A stretch of DNA of 64,000 nucleotides, taken from assembly GCA_964361825.1 (NCBI GenBank), contig CAYICB010000002.1, positions 5,845 through 69,844 of the forward strand. Direction: 5' to 3'. Numbering within the stretch: the stretch's first letter is position 1; each line of letters begins with the position of its first letter. Positions 1,990 through 42,899 of this stretch are shown here, piece after piece. The translations under genes and the position numbers were made by a program. The notes beneath the pieces were generated by a model, which ran no database searches, had not been told where the DNA came from, and was given only the letters and a program-made list of their open reading frames with translations. Source of the stretch: an uncultured Candidatus Saccharibacteria bacterium (GTDB lineage Bacteria; Patescibacteriota; Minisyncoccia; Phycocordibacterales; JACOZG01).

Positions 1990-2280
1990 CTAATCATCCA
2001 CTAAACGCCACAACAAAATCAACGAGGCACAGAGCAGAAATGTTCCACCCCCTATTACCAGCCCGAGCATTAAGTGGCTACCGTTGTTGTGAATGATGCC
2101 AGCTAAGCACAGGCCCGCTCCAACGAGAAAGCCACCCGACACAACTGCGCATAATCCTAGGAAAATGAGCCCGGCGGCAAGGAAACAGCAGATTCTCAAA
2201 AAATCGTAAATCAAATCGTAAATCCTTTTAAGAACCATGATAAACCCCCTTTGTGAAATGACCCAGTTTGTCCAAATCAA
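1990..2280 (-). CDS. hypothetical small membrane protein
   Basis: 96 aa with two to three strongly hydrophobic segments. Confidence 0.4.
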   Translation of the reverse strand: MIWTNWVISQRGFIMVLKRIYDLIYDFLRICCFLAAGLIFLGLCAVVSGGFLVGAGLCLAGIIHNNGSHLMLGLVIGGGTFLLCASLILLWRLVDD

Positions 2281-5201: not shown

Positions 5202-5909
5202 CTAACTGTTGAACATCGGATGTTCAACAATCTCTGCCAGATCTTTGGCCCCACTTGTTTGTACCCATTCGTGATAATCATCACTTTTTGCAAACTGTTC
5301 GCGAATTGGCTCGGTGTGTAGGAGGTTTGACCAACGGTTCTTAGAAAGGAAGTCTTGATAACTAGACCAAGGATATTCATGGGCCTTATTTCTCCAGCCA
5401 GTTAGCTCACAACAATTCCGATGAATATAAGCTGAGGCATATAACAGCTGTTCATTGTCGCCGATATGCGAAAATTTAAAAGCCCCCTGAAATAAGTAAC
5501 CACTCGCTTGGTATTTGGTATTAAAATATTTGGTGTAACTGTTACCCACTCTTTGCATATACTTCGATATTCCTCCCTCCTTTACTTCTTCTGCGATCAA
5601 GTGAAAATGATTAGGCATCAAGGCGAAGGCAATGAGACGCAGTCCGCGTTCTCGGGTGATTTTTTCTTCCATTGCCCTGTCAGTGTTGAACATCCGATGT
5701 TCAACATATCGAGTGACAAGTCGACCGGGGTTGTCGATTGTTTCTGGCCCTTGAAAATAAAGAAGGGAAAGCAAAAACCGAGCTCGATCACGATCGTCGA
5801 GAAAAATTTTCCTCTTTAAAACCCCGCGGTTGTAAATATGATAAAATTCACCGGGAGCTAATGTTTGCACTCGTTTCATGGTGTCTGTTGAACATCCGAT
5901 GTTCAACAT
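5202..5909 (-). CDS. IS200/IS605-like Y1 (HUH) tyrosine transposase, RAYT-like
   Basis: FYHIYNRG ... MPNHFHLI (HuH motif) ... catalytic-Tyr region YIHRN ... YPWSSY. This is the standard Y1 transposase / REP-associated tyrosine transposase layout. Both gene ends and one internal site carry the 23-bp palindrome. Confidence 0.75.
   Translation of the reverse strand: MLNIGCSTDTMKRVQTLAPGEFYHIYNRGVLKRKIFLDDRDRARFLLSLLYFQGPETIDNPGRLVTRYVEHRMFNTDRAMEEKITRERGLRLIAFALMPNHFHLIAEEVKEGGISKYMQRVGNSYTKYFNTKYQASGYLFQGAFKFSHIGDNEQLLYASAYIHRNCCELTGWRNKAHEYPWSSYQDFLSKNRWSNLLHTEPIREQFAKSDDYHEWVQTSGAKDLAEIVEHPMFNS
5207..5229. repeat. REP-like 23-bp palindrome TGTTGAACATCGGATGTTCAACA (copy at 3' end of RAYT gene)
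   Basis: Perfect 11+1+11 palindrome. Identical copies at 5684, 5886 and 14442; a compensatory variant at 49814. Confidence 0.8.
5684..5706. repeat. REP-like palindrome copy (inside RAYT coding sequence)
   Basis: TGTTGAACATCCGATGTTCAACA, translated in frame as VEHRMFN. Confidence 0.8.
5886..5908. repeat. REP-like palindrome copy (at 5' end of RAYT gene)
   Basis: TGTTGAACATCCGATGTTCAACA, overlapping the annotated start codon region. Confidence 0.8.
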
Positions 5910-14441: not shown

Positions 14442-14464
14442 TGTTGAACATCGGATGTTCAACA
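14442..14464. repeat. REP-like palindrome copy upstream of the MGMT-like gene
   Basis: TGTTGAACATCGGATGTTCAACA, identical to copies in the RAYT locus about 9 kb away. Confidence 0.8.
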
Positions 14465-14465
14465 A

Positions 14466-38232: not shown

Positions 38233-38233
38233 A

Positions 38234-38779
38234 TTAACCCCGGGCTTTTTGTTTGGCTTCGTTGATTTTTTGTTTAACAAAATCGGGGCGAGCAGCGAGA
38301 GTGAGGAGAAATTCGCGGGATTCACCGGCCGTTTGAATGCGCAAATCACCATAATTTAACAAAGTAGGAATGAGACCAGCGATATTGGTGGTAATATCTT
38401 GAACATCTTCGAGATGACAGCTGGCCACCTCGCGATGGAAAAAGCCTTTTTGTTCGATATCAATGACTCTTTGGTTAGTAATAATCCACACATCAAGATA
38501 AAAATTGGTCCACGCCACAAAACCAAGAATCCATACCGCCACCAACCACAAAGAATAGGCAAAAAAGAACAACCCACCAAGAAAGGGAATAAAAGACTGG
38601 AGCAAGGCGGGCGCCGTCGCCATTACCAAAAGAAAAAGGAGTTCTAAAAAAATCACAAACCAGTGCCGTCGCGCTCGGCAAATCACCTCTTCGCCACTAT
38701 TTAATAACACCATAGAGAGCAAAAACGGATAAGGTAATAAGTAGGGCCAAACCGAGAAAATAAACCAGCGTAACCCCAA
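38234..38779 (-). CDS. membrane protein with bacterial PH-like domain (YdbS/YdbT-like)
   Basis: Two TM helices followed by a bPH-like C-terminal domain. The start may be an internal Met. Confidence 0.45.
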   Translation of the reverse strand: MGLRWFIFSVWPYLLPYPFLLSMVLLNSGEEVICRARRHWFVIFLELLFLLVMATAPALLQSFIPFLGGLFFFAYSLWLVAVWILGFVAWTNFYLDVWIITNQRVIDIEQKGFFHREVASCHLEDVQDITTNIAGLIPTLLNYGDLRIQTAGESREFLLTLAARPDFVKQKINEAKQKARG

Positions 38780-38927
38780 CCACCGTCGACCGATTTACCA
38801 CATACCGCCACCAGTGATAAACCAAAACGATCGAAAGTAAGGCCACCGCCAAAAGCGCCGCCACCCACAAATACACATAAGCTTGGGGGTTAACTACTGG
38901 AAACATTAATGATATTATAGCTCCCAC
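38697..38927 (-). CDS. hypothetical small membrane protein
   Basis: 76 aa with two TM helices; overlaps the 5' end of the downstream ORF model. Confidence 0.3.
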   Translation of the reverse strand: MGAIISLMFPVVNPQAYVYLWVAALLAVALLSIVLVYHWWRYVVNRSTVVGVTLVYFLGLALLITLSVFALYGVIK

Positions 38928-38929
38928 TT

Positions 38930-39424
38930 ATGATTCTTGCCACCCACGCCATTATTGGTGCCGGTATTGCCACTTTGGTGCCGCAAAATCCGGCGCTGGG
39001 GTTTGGTTTGGCCTTTGCCAGCCACTTTTTGCTCGATGCCATCCCACATTGGGATTACCAACTCAACTCTCGTTATGAGGACCACAGTGATCTCAAAAAT
39101 GATGACATGCTGCTCAACCGCGCCTTTGTGGGGGATTTATTTAAAATTGGGTTGGATTTTGTAATTGGCCTCGCTCTCGCTTGGCTAATTTTAACTTGGT
39201 TAAAACCCGAAATAAGTTTGGTAACGATTCTCTTCGGCGTACTTGGCGGGATGGCGCCTGACTTCCTCCAGTTCGCTTATTTTAAGCTTAAGCGCGAACC
39301 CCTAACCTCCCTCCAGCGCTTCCATCAATGGATCCACACCTCGTGGCGTTTGAAAAACAAGCCCATTGTTGGTCTTGGCCTCCAAGCCCTTCTCGTCACC
39401 ACCTTCCTTGTGCTAGTGTTATAA
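38930..39424 (+). CDS. hypothetical membrane protein
   Basis: 164 aa with four predicted TM helices. Confidence 0.4.
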   Translation: MILATHAIIGAGIATLVPQNPALGFGLAFASHFLLDAIPHWDYQLNSRYEDHSDLKNDDMLLNRAFVGDLFKIGLDFVIGLALAWLILTWLKPEISLVTILFGVLGGMAPDFLQFAYFKLKREPLTSLQRFHQWIHTSWRLKNKPIVGLGLQALLVTTFLVLVL

Positions 39425-39429
39425 TTGAT

Positions 39430-39789
39430 ATGAAAATAAATATCAAAGCGACAGGGATAGAATTAACAACCGCTATTAGATCTTACTTAGAAACCAAGCT
39501 AGAACCCTTAAAAAAGCTTTTGGGAACAAAAGAAGAAGGGGCCATTATTCAAACCGAGCTGGGTAAGGAAACCAAGCATCATAAACACGGAGAGGTTTTT
39601 AGGGCGGAAATTAATTTGAGTTTTGCGGGCAAGCAATTACGCGCCGTAGCCACCGCCAATGATCTCTATGCCGCCATTGATGAAGTAAAAGATGAATTGG
39701 TGCAAGAAACTAAGTCTGGCCGGAGCAAAGCGCAGTCCCGAGTTAAGCGGGGAGCGAGAGCGGCCAAAAAACTTTTAACAGGTAATTAA
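39430..39789 (+). CDS. hpf: ribosome hibernation promoting factor (HPF/RaiA family)
   Basis: MKINIKATGIELTTAIRSYLETKL ... HPF fold. The internal ATG at 39430 was chosen. Confidence 0.8.
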   Translation: MKINIKATGIELTTAIRSYLETKLEPLKKLLGTKEEGAIIQTELGKETKHHKHGEVFRAEINLSFAGKQLRAVATANDLYAAIDEVKDELVQETKSGRSKAQSRVKRGARAAKKLLTGN

Positions 39790-39798
39790 AAAAACGCC

Positions 39799-40437
39799 AT
39801 GCCCAAAGGAGTCATTATTGTTTTTATTATTTTAATCATTTTGGTTTTTGGTCTAATTTTCTTTTGGGGTCAGCCAGTGGAGGAACCAGTTGTCACGCCC
39901 CAAGAACAAGAAACCAAAACCCCAATTACCAAAGAAGAAAACCCTATTATGAATACTGCAATTTTTAAAACCAATCTCGGCGAAATTACTCTCGAGCTTT
40001 ACCCCGACAAAGCGCCAAAAACCGTTGAGAACTTCGTTAAACTCGCTCAAAGTGGCTTTTATAATGGCACCCTATTTCATCGCGTCATTAAAGACTTTAT
40101 GATTCAAGGTGGCGATCCAAACACCAAGAGTGAACCAAAAAATTGGGCGATCCACGGCACCGGCGGGCCGGATTATAAATTCGCTGATGAATTTAATGAT
40201 GTCAAAATTGTGAACGGCGTCCTCGCGATGGCAAATAGTGGGCCCAATACCAATGGCTCGCAATTCTTCATCGTTACCGCTCCGGCCACGCCCTGGCTTG
40301 ATGGTAAACATACCGCCTTCGGCCGCGTGACGGCCGGCCTAGATATTGTTGAGAAAATCGAAGCCGTGGCTACCGACAAAGCCAAAGGCGATCACCCTAT
40401 CGAAGATGTAATCTTGCAAGAAGTGGTGGTGAAATAG
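39799..40437 (+). CDS. ppiB: cyclophilin-type peptidyl-prolyl isomerase with N-terminal membrane anchor
   Basis: FHRVIKDFMIQGGDP, GSQFFI, cyclophilin core; N-terminal TM helix. Confidence 0.85.
   Translation: MPKGVIIVFIILIILVFGLIFFWGQPVEEPVVTPQEQETKTPITKEENPIMNTAIFKTNLGEITLELYPDKAPKTVENFVKLAQSGFYNGTLFHRVIKDFMIQGGDPNTKSEPKNWAIHGTGGPDYKFADEFNDVKIVNGVLAMANSGPNTNGSQFFIVTAPATPWLDGKHTAFGRVTAGLDIVEKIEAVATDKAKGDHPIEDVILQEVVVK
40414..40433. repeat. 20-bp direct repeat copy 1 (TTGCAAGAAGTGGTGGTGAA), 3' end of the cyclophilin gene
   Basis: Perfect copy at 41141-41160; the two copies bracket the HD-hydrolase gene. Confidence 0.85.
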
Positions 40438-40536
40438 TTTTGCTCAACAAACCTAGACAAATTGGGTTGATGGTGATAAACATATGGCCGGATGTGTTTT
40501 TTGGAATGAAACTAAGAAAGTTTAAGGAGAGCGCTG

Positions 40537-41121
40537 ATGGACAACACCAAGTCTCTCATTGAGAGGGCAAAAGAGTTTGCCACGATGGCACATGAGGGTC
40601 AGTTCAGGTTGGGGAAGAAAAAAGAGCCATTCATTGCTCATCCTGCATTAGTGGCCAGTTTGGTTTGCCTTTCCGAAGGAAGAATAGTGGCACAAATTGC
40701 GGCCGCTTGGTTGCATGATGTCGTCGAAGACGCCAGTAATGGCGACCGAGTTGGCATGCACAAAACAATCCGCAAACTGTTCGGCAAAACTGTTGCTGAA
40801 ATTGTTGACGGCCTAACCGATCCACCAGAATTTGAGGGGTTACCTCTTTTGGAAAGAAAGGCTCTTCAGGCGGAGCGCGTAGCCACTAAAAGTGCGGGCG
40901 TAAAGCGAGTCAAGCTCGCCGATCAGATTGCCAATGTGACTTCACTTGCCACGGATCCTCCCATAAAATGGAGCTTGGAAGAACGCCGAAACTATCTAGA
41001 TGGAGCAAGGTTAGTGGCCGAGCAATGTGCTGGGATTAGTCTTTTTCTCGATAACACTTGGACCAGGGCTTATGCGAAAACGGAAGAAGCGCTAGAGAAA
41101 AGGCGCCTTACCGGGGAATAA
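40537..41121 (+). CDS. HD-domain small (p)ppGpp hydrolase-like protein (RelA/SpoT HD domain only)
   Basis: FIAHPALVASLV...AAWLHDVVEDA matches the SpoT/Mesh1 HD hydrolase motif (H..HP..VA....LHDV.EDT). 194 aa; no synthetase domain. Confidence 0.65.
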   Translation: MDNTKSLIERAKEFATMAHEGQFRLGKKKEPFIAHPALVASLVCLSEGRIVAQIAAAWLHDVVEDASNGDRVGMHKTIRKLFGKTVAEIVDGLTDPPEFEGLPLLERKALQAERVATKSAGVKRVKLADQIANVTSLATDPPIKWSLEERRNYLDGARLVAEQCAGISLFLDNTWTRAYAKTEEALEKRRLTGE

Positions 41122-41140
41122 TCCGACTTTTTGCATCACA

Positions 41141-41160
41141 TTGCAAGAAGTGGTGGTGAA
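41141..41160. repeat. 20-bp direct repeat copy 2
   Basis: Identical to 40414-40433. Confidence 0.85.
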
Positions 41161-41253
41161 GTAACTAATTCCTGTTGACTTTTTTCTCAAAATTATTAGT
41201 ATTTAAACTGGCGTTAGTACAAATTCCCGCGATTCTGTTTCGAAAGGAAAAAC

Positions 41254-41472
41254 ATGGCTTCGGATAAAAAACAAAAATATGTTAGGCCGTCTCATTGCAT
41301 TGGCGGCATCGGTTGCCCCGAAGTGAAGATTGAACCGGATTGTGTTCGATTGAGGTTGTCTGATCGGCCGAACAAATCACAAACGTTCTCGTATCAAGAA
41401 TGGCGAGATCTAGTGAGGGCGGTCAAAGCGGGAGAATATGATCTCCCTGGAACAAAGGCTGAAAATCCGTAA
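41254..41472 (+). CDS. DUF397-family small protein
   Basis: CIGGIGCPEVKIEPDCVRLRLSDRPN...FSYQEWRDLVRAVKAGEYD fits DUF397 (CVEVA...V.VRDSKDP....F....W..F...VK.GEFD). Confidence 0.6.
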   Translation: MASDKKQKYVRPSHCIGGIGCPEVKIEPDCVRLRLSDRPNKSQTFSYQEWRDLVRAVKAGEYDLPGTKAENP

Positions 41473-41506: not shown

Positions 41507-41539
41507 AAGCTCGAGCCAAGTAAGGCCCGAGCTTTTTTA
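41507..41539. terminator. rho-independent terminator (GCTCGAGCC..GGCCCGAGC plus T6), shared by convergent genes
   Basis: Imperfect 9-bp stem followed by TTTTTT; lies between the DUF397 gene and the fmt 3' end. Confidence 0.5.
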
Positions 41540-42406
41540 TTGTCCGCGTTTAAAGTCTTCCCAACTCATTTCTTTACGGCCTTCGGGAATCACGCTATCT
41601 AAAATAAATTGGTCAGCGGCGAGATGGGCGGCGATAATTTTGACCCGGATGTTTTTACCGTGACGATGAGTGAAAAAATAAGTCCCGGGCCAAGGTTGAT
41701 AAGCGAGAAATTTGCGGTAATTCTCAAGTGGATCAGCGTTTAGATCAAGCTGACCATCTTCTTTGGTAATTTTCTTGGTAAAAGTGGCTTGGGTGTGATC
41801 CTGCGCGGAAGGTTTAACCTTGCCAGCCAGATAGTCCGGTAAAATTTCGAGAAAAAGCTCGGCGCCAAGTTTGGCTAACTCGTCTCGCAATTCGGGATAA
41901 GATTTTTCTTCCGCCAAATTTTGACTTTTTATTTTTGCCTTTTGACTTATTATCGGCCCATGATCCACTTCTTCATCCATCTGCATAATCGTTACACCGG
42001 GCACGGCACCAGTAAGAATGGTGTTTTGAATTGGCGCCGGACCACGAAAGGCGGGGAGGAGTGAGGGGTGGATATTGAGCGTACCGTGCTTAGGTAAATC
42101 AATTACAGCTTTGGGTAAAATCTTACCGTAAGAAGCAACGAGGGCCAGATCGGGGAGGGTCTCAAGGACGCACCTTGGGTCTGGGTTTTTAAGGTGCGTC
42201 CTTTGGATTCGGTCAGGTTGAATAAAAGATAAATTGTTTGCCAAACAAAAAGTCTTGACCGGTGGCGGTGTTAACTCCTGTTTTCTCCCTGAGATAGCGT
42301 CGGGAGTGGTAATTACGGTCACTGGTCTAACTCCTTGTGCTAAGAGATAATCGAGAACCGCCACGGCAAAATCATCGGTACCAAAAAAAATTAATTTAGG
42401 TGTCAT
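41537..42406 (-). CDS. fmt: methionyl-tRNA formyltransferase
   Basis: IFFGTDDFAV; HPSLLPAFRGPAPIQ. Confidence 0.9.
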   Translation of the reverse strand: MTPKLIFFGTDDFAVAVLDYLLAQGVRPVTVITTPDAISGRKQELTPPPVKTFCLANNLSFIQPDRIQRTHLKNPDPRCVLETLPDLALVASYGKILPKAVIDLPKHGTLNIHPSLLPAFRGPAPIQNTILTGAVPGVTIMQMDEEVDHGPIISQKAKIKSQNLAEEKSYPELRDELAKLGAELFLEILPDYLAGKVKPSAQDHTQATFTKKITKEDGQLDLNADPLENYRKFLAYQPWPGTYFFTHRHGKNIRVKIIAAHLAADQFILDSVIPEGRKEMSWEDFKRGQ

Positions 42407-42899
42407 TTTTTACGGCCCGCACATCAGTGGCCAAATCGATAAACAAAACCCCGTTTAAGTGATCAATCTCGTGTTGAAAAATTTGAGCCAGAAGACCCGC
42501 GGCTCGTCGTTCAAACTTTTTCCCATTTTGATCATAAGCCATCACACTCACTTTCTCGGCCCGTTTCACCAAGCCGTAAAGCGGCCGCACGCTCAAACAC
42601 CCTTCTTCTAAAACCACTTTCTTCCGTGAAAATTTAACTATTTCTGGATTAATAAACACTTGATCGGGCGGCGGCGGTTCACCCTCTTTACCAAACACTT
42701 TTCCCGAAACCACAAAAATTCTTTTACTCAAACCAATTTGGGGCGCCGCGAGAGCCACCCCATCATCACAAGCCCCAAGCGCGGCACTCATCCGGCGTAA
42801 TTCATCAATCAAGGCCGGAGTACCAAAATCAGCCGCGGCCACCGGCGCGGCCGTAGCCCGCAAAACTGGAGCTTCAGCTTGTAAAATTTGATTAGTCAT
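42396..42899 (-). CDS. def: peptide deformylase
   Basis: EGCLSV, QHEIDHLNG motifs. Confidence 0.9.
   Translation of the reverse strand: MTNQILQAEAPVLRATAAPVAAADFGTPALIDELRRMSAALGACDDGVALAAPQIGLSKRIFVVSGKVFGKEGEPPPPDQVFINPEIVKFSRKKVVLEEGCLSVRPLYGLVKRAEKVSVMAYDQNGKKFERRAAGLLAQIFQHEIDHLNGVLFIDLATDVRAVKNDT

Follow-up and report, generated by a model that had tools for sequence, protein, structure and literature searches.

A perfect direct repeat that brackets a single gene raises the question of whether that gene arrived as a mobile element, with the repeat as its footprint, or whether the repeat is the by-product of some other form of recombination. The locus considered here lies within a stretch of 64,000 nucleotides (hereafter 'the window') of contig CAYICB010000002.1, from an uncultured Candidatus Saccharibacteria bacterium sampled in groundwater metagenomes of the Hainich aquifer (well H43). 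A 20-mer (TTGCAAGAAGTGGTGGTGAA) is found there on the + strand at 40414-40433, at the end of a cyclophilin gene, and again at 41141-41160, at an offset of 727 nt; the two copies enclose a gene for a 194-residue HD-domain protein, and beyond the second copy lies an open reading frame (ORF) of 72 residues that is related to the DUF397 family. An earlier note, made from the letters of the sequence alone, had described this repeat correctly and had interpreted it as a 'target-site duplication or recombination scar' of an inserted cassette. The comparison with related strains that is described below upholds the 'scar' and dismisses the 'target-site duplication', in that two relatives (contigs L015 and L004) harbour the HD gene without any second 20-mer. 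On balance, the repeat is probably the scar of a joining of two alternative small-gene cassettes from related strains, which would have occurred when a cell carrying the HD cassette imported a DNA fragment carrying the DUF397-like one.

Within the window, no further copy of the 20-mer exists at up to 3 mismatches, and a two-match result was obtained in 0 of 100 shuffles. The likeness of the two copies extends to 22 of 24 nt (with AAATAG at the end of copy 1 and AAGTAA at the end of copy 2), and both translate to LQEVVVK followed by a stop. Copy 1 (TTGCAAGAAGTGGTGGTGAAATAG; 40414-40437, + strand) supplies the functional last seven codons and the TAG stop of the gene for a cyclophilin-type peptidyl-prolyl isomerase (39799-40437, + strand; 212 residues, with an N-terminal membrane anchor; Pro_isomerase, E 2.6e-53). 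Copy 2 (TTGCAAGAAGTGGTGGTGAAGTAA; 41141-41164, + strand) is a non-functional remnant of such a 3' end. The first 20 nt of copy 1 are nucleotide-identical in all six lineages compared (the window's own gene and the orthologues in L010, L012, L013, L014 and L015, all of which terminate in DVILQEVVVK), and constitute the longest invariant block of the cyclophilin gene (20 nt, the next longest being 14). Because the 20-mer is invariant throughout these lineages, the perfect identity of its two copies says little about the age of the duplication. The gene is otherwise 74-99% identical among the six, and 6-7 synonymous positions within the 20-mer are unchanged, an invariance that may be due to chance (p 0.05-0.15, a rough estimate) or to a constraint at convergent gene ends. 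Exact scans for the 20-mer yielded 0 matches in viral contigs, 9 in GTDB genomes (of which only OZ246403.1, contig L019, corresponds to a cyclophilin end) and 22 in JGI metagenomes, all within unrelated genes; none of these three scans produced an additional haplotype of the locus.

What lies between the cyclophilin gene and its convergent neighbour, the methionyl-tRNA formyltransferase gene fmt (41537-42406, - strand; Formyl_trans_N, E 1e-31), differs from one strain to the next. Contigs of relatives were recovered by exact-protein look-ups and by way of cyclophilin homologues; fmt is syntenic in L010, L013, L014 and L015, and the two genes form the conserved left and right flanks of a variable spot that, in this group of groundwater Patescibacteria, holds either nothing, an HD unit or a DUF397-like unit. 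Together with the window, this amounts to four haplotypes. The empty state is represented by L014 (cyclophilin 81% identical), which has no spacer at all, so that the cyclophilin stop abuts the fmt stop (GTGGTGAAGTAA followed directly by CTAATTCCCGCG), and by L010/L019 (a 716-kb chromosome, OZ246403.1), in which a spacer of 260 nt contains no called gene. 'Type B' is represented by L013 (cyclophilin 90% identical), and consists of a single 20-mer, ATAA, the octamer CTAATTCC, a promoter-like site, the 72-residue ORF, a terminator and fmt; it lacks the HD gene, shares its right flank with the window, and is the one-copy empty site that the earlier note had hoped to find in a relative. 'Type A' is represented by L015 (well H51) and L004 (well H43), and consists of the 20-mer, ATAG, the HD gene, TCCGACTTTTTGCATCAC(C/A)T, a 47-nt stretch and fmt; the 47-nt stretch is a strong terminator hairpin (dG -26.6, z -5.75), the T-tract of which runs into fmt. 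The left HD junction of both type-A contigs is as in the window, and both the second 20-mer and the 72-residue ORF are absent from them. 'Type C', finally, comprises the window together with L001, L002 and L003 (from separate samples or assemblers), and displays an identical joint in all of them.

That joint can be placed exactly. Type C is type A through 41140 and type B from 41141 onwards, that is, from a point 23-24 nt before the B-type cyclophilin stop (the junction sequences being CATCACATAAACCAGACC for type A, GTGGTGAAATAACTAATTCC for type B and CATCACATTGCAAGAAG for type C). Up to 41139/41141, the HD unit of the window is 100% identical to that of L004 and 98.7% identical to that of L015 (L004 equals the window at 100% over 40285-41141), and both contigs leave the window sequence precisely at 41140/41141. 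There, A-type ...GCATCACA meets B-type TTGCAAG..., and in an alignment of the junctions (...CATCACA joined to TTGCAAG...) the parents share at most one T, a microhomology of no more than 1 nt that falls within the range (0 to a few nt, on one side) by which an illegitimate joint is recognized. A 10-bp hairpin (ACUUUUUGCA/UGCAAGAAGU) spans the joint, formed by the tail of the HD unit, ACTTTTTGCA, and the initial 10 nt of copy 2, TGCAAGAAGT (window 41126-41150). It was considered as evidence and dropped, because 3-5% of random or shuffled 19-mers pair equally well; the placement of the joint in its loop is probably a matter of chance.

The segment to the right of the joint carries the marks of a longer history. 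Window positions 41141-41172 are identical at 32 of 32 nt to L014 1006-1037, the site in that strain at which the cyclophilin and fmt stops abut, and this match is the reason for reading copy 2 as a relic cyclophilin 3' end, apparently brought along with the DUF397 segment. In L013, the bases of copy 2 form the single functional end of the cyclophilin gene, and the end of the L014 gene is identical as well. The adjoining octamer (CTAATTCC; 41165-41172, + strand) is the real end of fmt in L014 and is found as the same 8 nt in L013; in the window it is a relic of the ancestral fmt 3' end (the stop and last codons, minus strand), and as such it marks an older, first entry of the DUF397 unit at this site. 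To the left of the joint, the HD unit of the window (40438-41140, + strand) is as in type A with the exception of a truncated 3' end: an upstream region with an AAGGAG ribosome-binding site (40438-40536) and the HD_4 gene (40537-41121) are followed by a 19-nt 3' tail (41122-41140), and the unit's own terminator is missing. Since the HD unit of the window lacks a terminator that type A possesses, the derivation runs from type A to type C, not the other way; and since the window nowhere contains the sequence of the type-A terminator, the derivation of type A from type C by a simple deletion is ruled out.

These haplotypes bear directly on the possibility that the HD cassette is itself mobile, or was mobilized in trans, and that a transposase or site-specific recombinase generated a target-site or att duplication of 20-23 bp. 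Several features are those that such an event would leave: perfect direct repeats flank a single gene, an empty site with one copy exists, a second perfect pair of 19-mers surrounds another cassette in the window (see below), and a duplicated 3' end of a conserved gene is encountered at many integrase targets. However, a target-site or att duplication caused by insertion of the HD gene predicts both copies at every occupied site, and type A, with the same HD gene and left junction, no second repeat (and hence no attR) and 47 additional nt, refutes that prediction. Neither defined ends in the form of terminal inverted repeats nor a recombinase could be found in the insert, and no integrase, transposase or other recombinase family is present among the Pfam matches of the neighbouring genes (covering ~6 kb to the left and ~8 kb to the right, where several neighbours gave no Pfam match of any kind); these neighbours have housekeeping functions and are syntenic with L010. 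At their ends, the cassettes enclosed by the 20-mer and 19-mer pairs have no motif in common, the viral contigs contain no copy of the 20-mer, and neither the HD insert nor the DUF397 cassette has a DNA match in phage or plasmid collections. Finally, the usual transposase duplications are far shorter than 20-23 bp. Taken together, mobility of the HD cassette is a very unlikely explanation of the repeat.

The recurrence of the same haplotypes in separate contigs bears equally on the suspicion that copy 2, and with it the combination of the two genes, is an assembly artefact produced by a chimeric joining of strains. The coverage of the contigs is low (1-5x), and L002 shows an N gap and strain mixing in its cyclophilin gene, as such an artefact might require. 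Against this, the window, L001, L002 and L003 have one and the same type C joint, type A was recovered twice independently, and final contigs are normally built with k-mers longer than a 20-nt repeat; an artefact is hardly credible. L004 was also considered as a chimeric contig in its own right and rejected, as L015 shows the same right junction. In L002, the gap consists of a 10-N scaffold gap inside the cyclophilin gene (L002 2980-2989, window ~40114-40221) that is followed by a stretch of a different allele, an instance of strain mixing in low-coverage assemblies.

If type C arose by joining an A-type and a B-type sequence, which of the two was the recipient? The profile of divergence along the locus offers a partial answer. 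To the left of the joint, the window differs from the type-A contig L015 by 0.5% over 38657-40071, by 4.7% over 40072-40586 and by 0.4% over 40587-41139; to the right, the corresponding values are 9.3% over 41531-41605 (the first 75 homologous nt beyond the joint), 1.1% over 41606-42243, 18.8% over 42244-42450 and 3.5% over 42451-42797. The step beside the joint, from 9.3% to 1.1% at ~41605, has a Fisher p of 2e-4 against the next 638 nt, in flanks that are a mosaic with other patches. From the type-B contig L013, the window differs by 3.0% in the DUF397 unit (41141-41472) and by 9.8% in the cyclophilin gene (p 3.5e-5); in the noncoding upstream part of the DUF397 unit (41141-41253) the difference is just 0.9% (99.1% identical), one 18-nt indel aside. 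The low divergence from L015 to the left of the joint and over 41606-42243, combined with the high divergence over 41531-41605, is in keeping with an A-type backbone on both sides of an imported B-type patch, which would extend from 41141 to ~41605 and take in both relics and the DUF397 unit as well as ~70 nt at the end of fmt. The locus as a whole is a recombination mosaic: the patch at 40072-40586 lies in the cyclophilin gene and the HD upstream region, and that at 42244-42450 is a hypervariable patch in the region where the start of fmt overlaps the end of def, with ~1% divergence nearby.

We therefore lean, at somewhat better than even confidence, towards a history in which a cell of type A took up DNA of a type-B relative. 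The right end of the incoming fragment would have crossed over homologously within the 3' part of fmt (~41606-41800), while its left end would have reached just 23-24 nt into the donor's cyclophilin gene and have been joined illegitimately 19 nt past the HD stop, with deletion of the 47-nt HD terminator. The product of these steps would display the order HD gene, relic cyclophilin end (copy 2) and DUF397 gene, and the 20-mer repeat would be a by-product of homology-facilitated illegitimate recombination. In RecA-mediated transformation, the minimal homologous segment is usually 25-35 bp (PMC6382021), and the fact that 23-24 nt fall below this minimum could explain why the fragment was added illegitimately, instead of replacing the HD unit.

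The opposite polarity can be envisaged with the same parents: a B-type recipient would have gained an A-type fragment that was anchored homologously in or to the left of the cyclophilin gene, and whose right end, severed past the HD stop but short of the HD terminator, would have been joined illegitimately 23-24 nt before the recipient's cyclophilin stop. The HD gene would then be the inserted piece, as the earlier note had supposed. L013 does resemble the exact empty site for such an insertion; the pattern in which a relic equals the end of the anchoring gene is seen again with the 8-nt fmt relic and with the pair of 19-mers at 637/1144; and L004, with identical sequence and from the same well, would be a fitting A-type donor. 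This polarity is nonetheless doubtful, though a real possibility, given that 41606-42243 is only 1.1% diverged from A-type L015 (as close as the left side, and as an A-type backbone would have it) and that the Hainich data yielded no B-type strain. A variant of it, in which a circularized A-type fragment of 727 nt (from the 20-mer through ...CATCACA) was integrated into a B-type chromosome by a single 'Campbell-type' crossover at 20-23 nt of homology, would generate exactly the observed structure, with a repeat as long as the homology of the circle, and would accommodate the 19-mer case likewise. It calls, however, for two rare steps, namely an illegitimate circularization and a crossover on ~20 nt, under the usual minimum (PMC6382021); the circular junction was not seen, and the argument from an A-type backbone applies to it as it does to the opposite polarity. 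Such an integration is very unlikely indeed.

Several observations also weigh against the favoured import of a B-type fragment into an A-type cell. The direction of transfer is read from a single contig of type A (L015) and a single, distant contig of type B (L013). Mosaicism affects both flanks (4.7% at 40072-40586 and 18.8% at 42244-42450), for which reason the patch beside the joint could be an unrelated import, and the end of fmt in the window is close to neither L013 nor L015. Exact-protein look-ups of the 72-residue ORF, of fmt and of a 71-residue ORF elsewhere in the window returned only type-C contigs from Hainich, and none of type B. Lastly, the second perfect repeat pair, made up of 19-mers on either side of a cassette with two ORFs (637-1162), may be a sign of some recurrent process.

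The gene between the repeats encodes a candidate small alarmone hydrolase of the Mesh1 type (194 residues; 40537-41121, + strand), and the earlier assignment of its HD domain to the RelA/SpoT hydrolase type was borne out. HD_4 (PF13328) matches it with 40.3 bits, against a cut-off of 27.2 (E 3.5e-10), and among solved structures the best matches are those of human MESH1 (3nr1; E 3.4e-16, over residues 7-172) and of Drosophila Mesh1 (3nqw). Residues R24, H35, H60-D61, E64-D65, D129 and N133 align with the RxxxxxxPYxxHP, LHDxxED and KLADxxxN motifs of MESH1. The match to TIGR00691 is limited to the N-terminal hydrolase part of that model (positions 2-124 of 687), and with its 194 residues and no synthetase or regulatory domains the protein belongs to the single-domain class. 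HD_4 is carried by all of the HD relatives listed (120 of 120), nearly all of which are single-domain proteins of ~175-215 residues; among these listed matches the closest is 59% identical, and those that are named are nearly always Patescibacteria (Paceibacterota, Kaiser-, Yanofsky- and Taylorbacteria), many of the top matches being nameless. The surroundings of homologues with 57-59% identity are conserved but of another kind (Cob_adeno_trans, a variable gene, HD, a 315-residue ORF, BacA and MsrA/B), and the source locus of the HD cassette, sought in the neighbourhoods of the homologues, was not identified. The HD gene adjoins no alarmone synthetase (its neighbours being the cyclophilin gene, the DUF397-like ORF and fmt) and has no PADLOC match. 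Members of this family have been reported to hydrolyse (p)ppGpp, (p)ppApp or NADPH (PMC7644958, PMC9765508); the present protein is probably an orphan, Mn-dependent candidate small alarmone hydrolase for (p)ppGpp or (p)ppApp.

The second gene of the pair (41254-41472, + strand) has an AAGGA ribosome-binding site, is preceded by a promoter-like site (TTGACT-16 nt-TAGTAT; 41175-41202, + strand) and is followed by a terminator hairpin with a T-run (41507-41540; dG -19.2, z -5.77) that is common to this ORF and the convergent fmt and is kept in L013. Just 5' of the promoter-like site, an 18-nt stretch (CGACTTGGCCCTTGCGGT) that is present in L013 (~877-894) is missing from the window at 41173/41174; it lies between two copies of GT(C/T)GACTT and looks like the product of slippage. 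The encoded protein is a divergent member of the DUF397 family, an assignment that the earlier note had made and that holds for its homologues more firmly than for the protein itself: when the 72-residue ORF was aligned with 25 homologues taken from the top 38 HMMER matches, PF04149 matched 26 of the 26 sequences at E up to 0.01 (best 1.5e-16), while the ORF alone scores 19.3 bits (E 1.3e-3), under the cut-off of 24. Those matches had to be collected by an exhaustive HMMER search (59 relatives besides the query at E up to 1e-3), a word-based homology search with the ORF having returned only itself. C15, C21 and R34 are invariant in the aligned set, and W50, G60, E61 and D63 nearly so. The orthologue in L013 is intact and differs by 4 synonymous and 5 non-synonymous changes. 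Its role is probably that of a small regulator or binding protein. In Streptomyces, DUF397 proteins are paired with an XRE partner (PMC10364602, PMC6262351, PMC10294661); such a pairing, of which the earlier note had made mention, has no counterpart at this locus, where no helix-turn-helix or XRE gene adjoins the ORF and where the relic, the HD gene and the cyclophilin gene lie upstream.

The note's further suggestion, that the cassettes were acquired from an actinobacterial host, fared poorly. Besides the Patescibacteria/Paceibacteria affinity of the named HD relatives, the relatives of the DUF397-like protein are at most 51% identical, and their sources include, besides Kitasatospora, a genome of the Opitutaceae and a phage-like contig with a GC content of 0.42. 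The anomaly of base composition that was to be looked for is also lacking: the GC content of the 72-residue ORF is 0.466 against 0.470 for the window, and both GC and GC3 of the HD gene and of the ORF equal those of the flanking genes, so that a recent transfer from a high-GC actinobacterial host is unsupported. The phage-like contig (L049 3773-5216; GCA_013565735.1, JACCDR010690273.1) has two tandem genes of the DUF397 family, situated between a gene of the Acb2/Tad1-hairpin family (phrog_1454) and a terminase small subunit-like gene, a hint that certain DUF397 proteins may move about together with genes for phage counter-defence. Two much larger proteins, P0242 (929 residues) and P0258 (647 residues), contain 13 and 6 stretches, respectively, that match the N-terminal half of the 72-residue ORF, and constitute tandem arrays of DUF397-like half-domains.

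Searches of the locus with Rfam, for tRNA genes and with PADLOC found nothing relevant. The 716-kb relative L010, which has neither cassette, carries two genes that the window does not, near the counterpart of window 38233-38930: a 353-residue ORF after dnaJ and a 405-residue Pyr_redox_2 protein (L010 4114-5175 and 5920-7137), an example of gene-content flux between otherwise syntenic genomes.

Two other cassettes in the window are bracketed by repeats. A perfect 19-mer (GCGAAAGATTTTTTAGTGT) occurs at 637-655 and 1144-1162, a match that was obtained in 0 of 100 shuffles; its first copy contains the last codons and stop of the 71-residue ORF (437-652), a layout like that of the cyclophilin 20-mer pair. 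The cassette between its copies (656-1143) consists of two overlapping ORFs, 664-867 (67 residues) and 864-1139 (91 residues), neither of which has a Pfam or NCBIfam match and which by eye look like a toxin-antitoxin pair. Further on, a 43-nt repeat (1924-1966 and 2805-2847, 91% identical) in the form of a terminator-like hairpin on the minus strand encloses an ORF for a membrane protein of 96 residues (1990-2280, minus strand) together with a gene for a PemK/MazF-like toxin (2320-2706, E 1.3e-9). No alternative haplotypes of either cassette were found by exact-protein look-ups, and no motif is common to the ends of these cassettes and of the HD insert. Elsewhere in the window, a 24-nt palindrome (TGTTGAACATCGGATGTTCAACAA) is present in four copies that are 92-100% identical (5207-5230, 5684-5707, 5886-5909 and 14442-14465), and could be an operator or a terminator-like element.

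The presence in one window of the 20-mer pair at 40414/41141, the 19-mer pair at 637/1144, the 8-nt fmt relic and the 43-nt terminator duplication suggests that, in this genome, the gain of cassettes has repeatedly left short duplications of gene ends behind. It also raises the idea, which we regard as unlikely, that this group of organisms may have a recurrent, sequence-independent form of cassette addition at the 3' ends of conserved genes, with duplications of ~19-24 nt. Were it true, it would imply either an integration machinery that is as yet uncharacterised or an end-joining process coupled to transformation, in which the length of the duplication is set by the minimum for strand exchange.

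The locus is, in sum, a well-resolved but ordinary strain-level polymorphism, and adds a further instance of processes and gene families that were already known. Its value lies in providing a natural case, resolved to the base pair, of accessory-gene shuffling in streamlined, uncultured Patescibacteria, in which alternative single-gene units occupy one convergent junction, an illegitimate joint has brought two of these units together in one strain, and a donor-like haplotype persists in the same aquifer well. The HD and DUF397 genes are both dispensable, strain-level accessory genes, and for that reason are candidates for stress- or phage-related functions. The locus also serves as a warning against taking every perfect direct repeat that surrounds a gene, even one accompanied by an apparent empty site, for the footprint of a transposon.

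Among known systems, the arrangement may be compared with homology-facilitated illegitimate recombination, which has been described for natural transformation in Acinetobacter baylyi, Streptococcus pneumoniae and Pseudomonas stutzeri (PMC6382021). As in those cases, one end would have been joined by homology and the other at little or no microhomology (here 1 nt), foreign sequence has been added beside a conserved gene, and donor-like and recipient-like haplotypes both exist; in contrast to them, the event is deduced here from natural haplotypes, and it left a 23-24 nt duplicate of a gene end, rather than a deletion only. The integrative elements known as ICE, IME and CIME, which are flanked by att sites in the 3' ends of housekeeping genes, likewise have repeats that duplicate a 3' end with its stop while the gene itself stays intact, but the present locus has no integrase, contains a single gene in ~700 nt, and has HD-bearing relatives without the second repeat. 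The HD protein resembles Mesh1 and other small alarmone hydrolases in its single HD_4 domain of ~190 residues, its near end-to-end alignment and its retention of metal-binding and catalytic residues; it departs from the known members in being ~25-30% identical to them at best, and in having no adjoining alarmone synthetase or toxic SAS gene. The DUF397-like protein, for its part, shares with BldB and the XRE-DUF397 pairs of Streptomyces a length of ~60-70 residues, two conserved cysteines, a conserved arginine and a C-terminal W...GE(F/Y)D, and differs from them in its Patescibacterium host, its sub-cut-off Pfam score, and a neighbourhood that has neither an XRE/WhiJ-type partner nor an AbaA-like gene.

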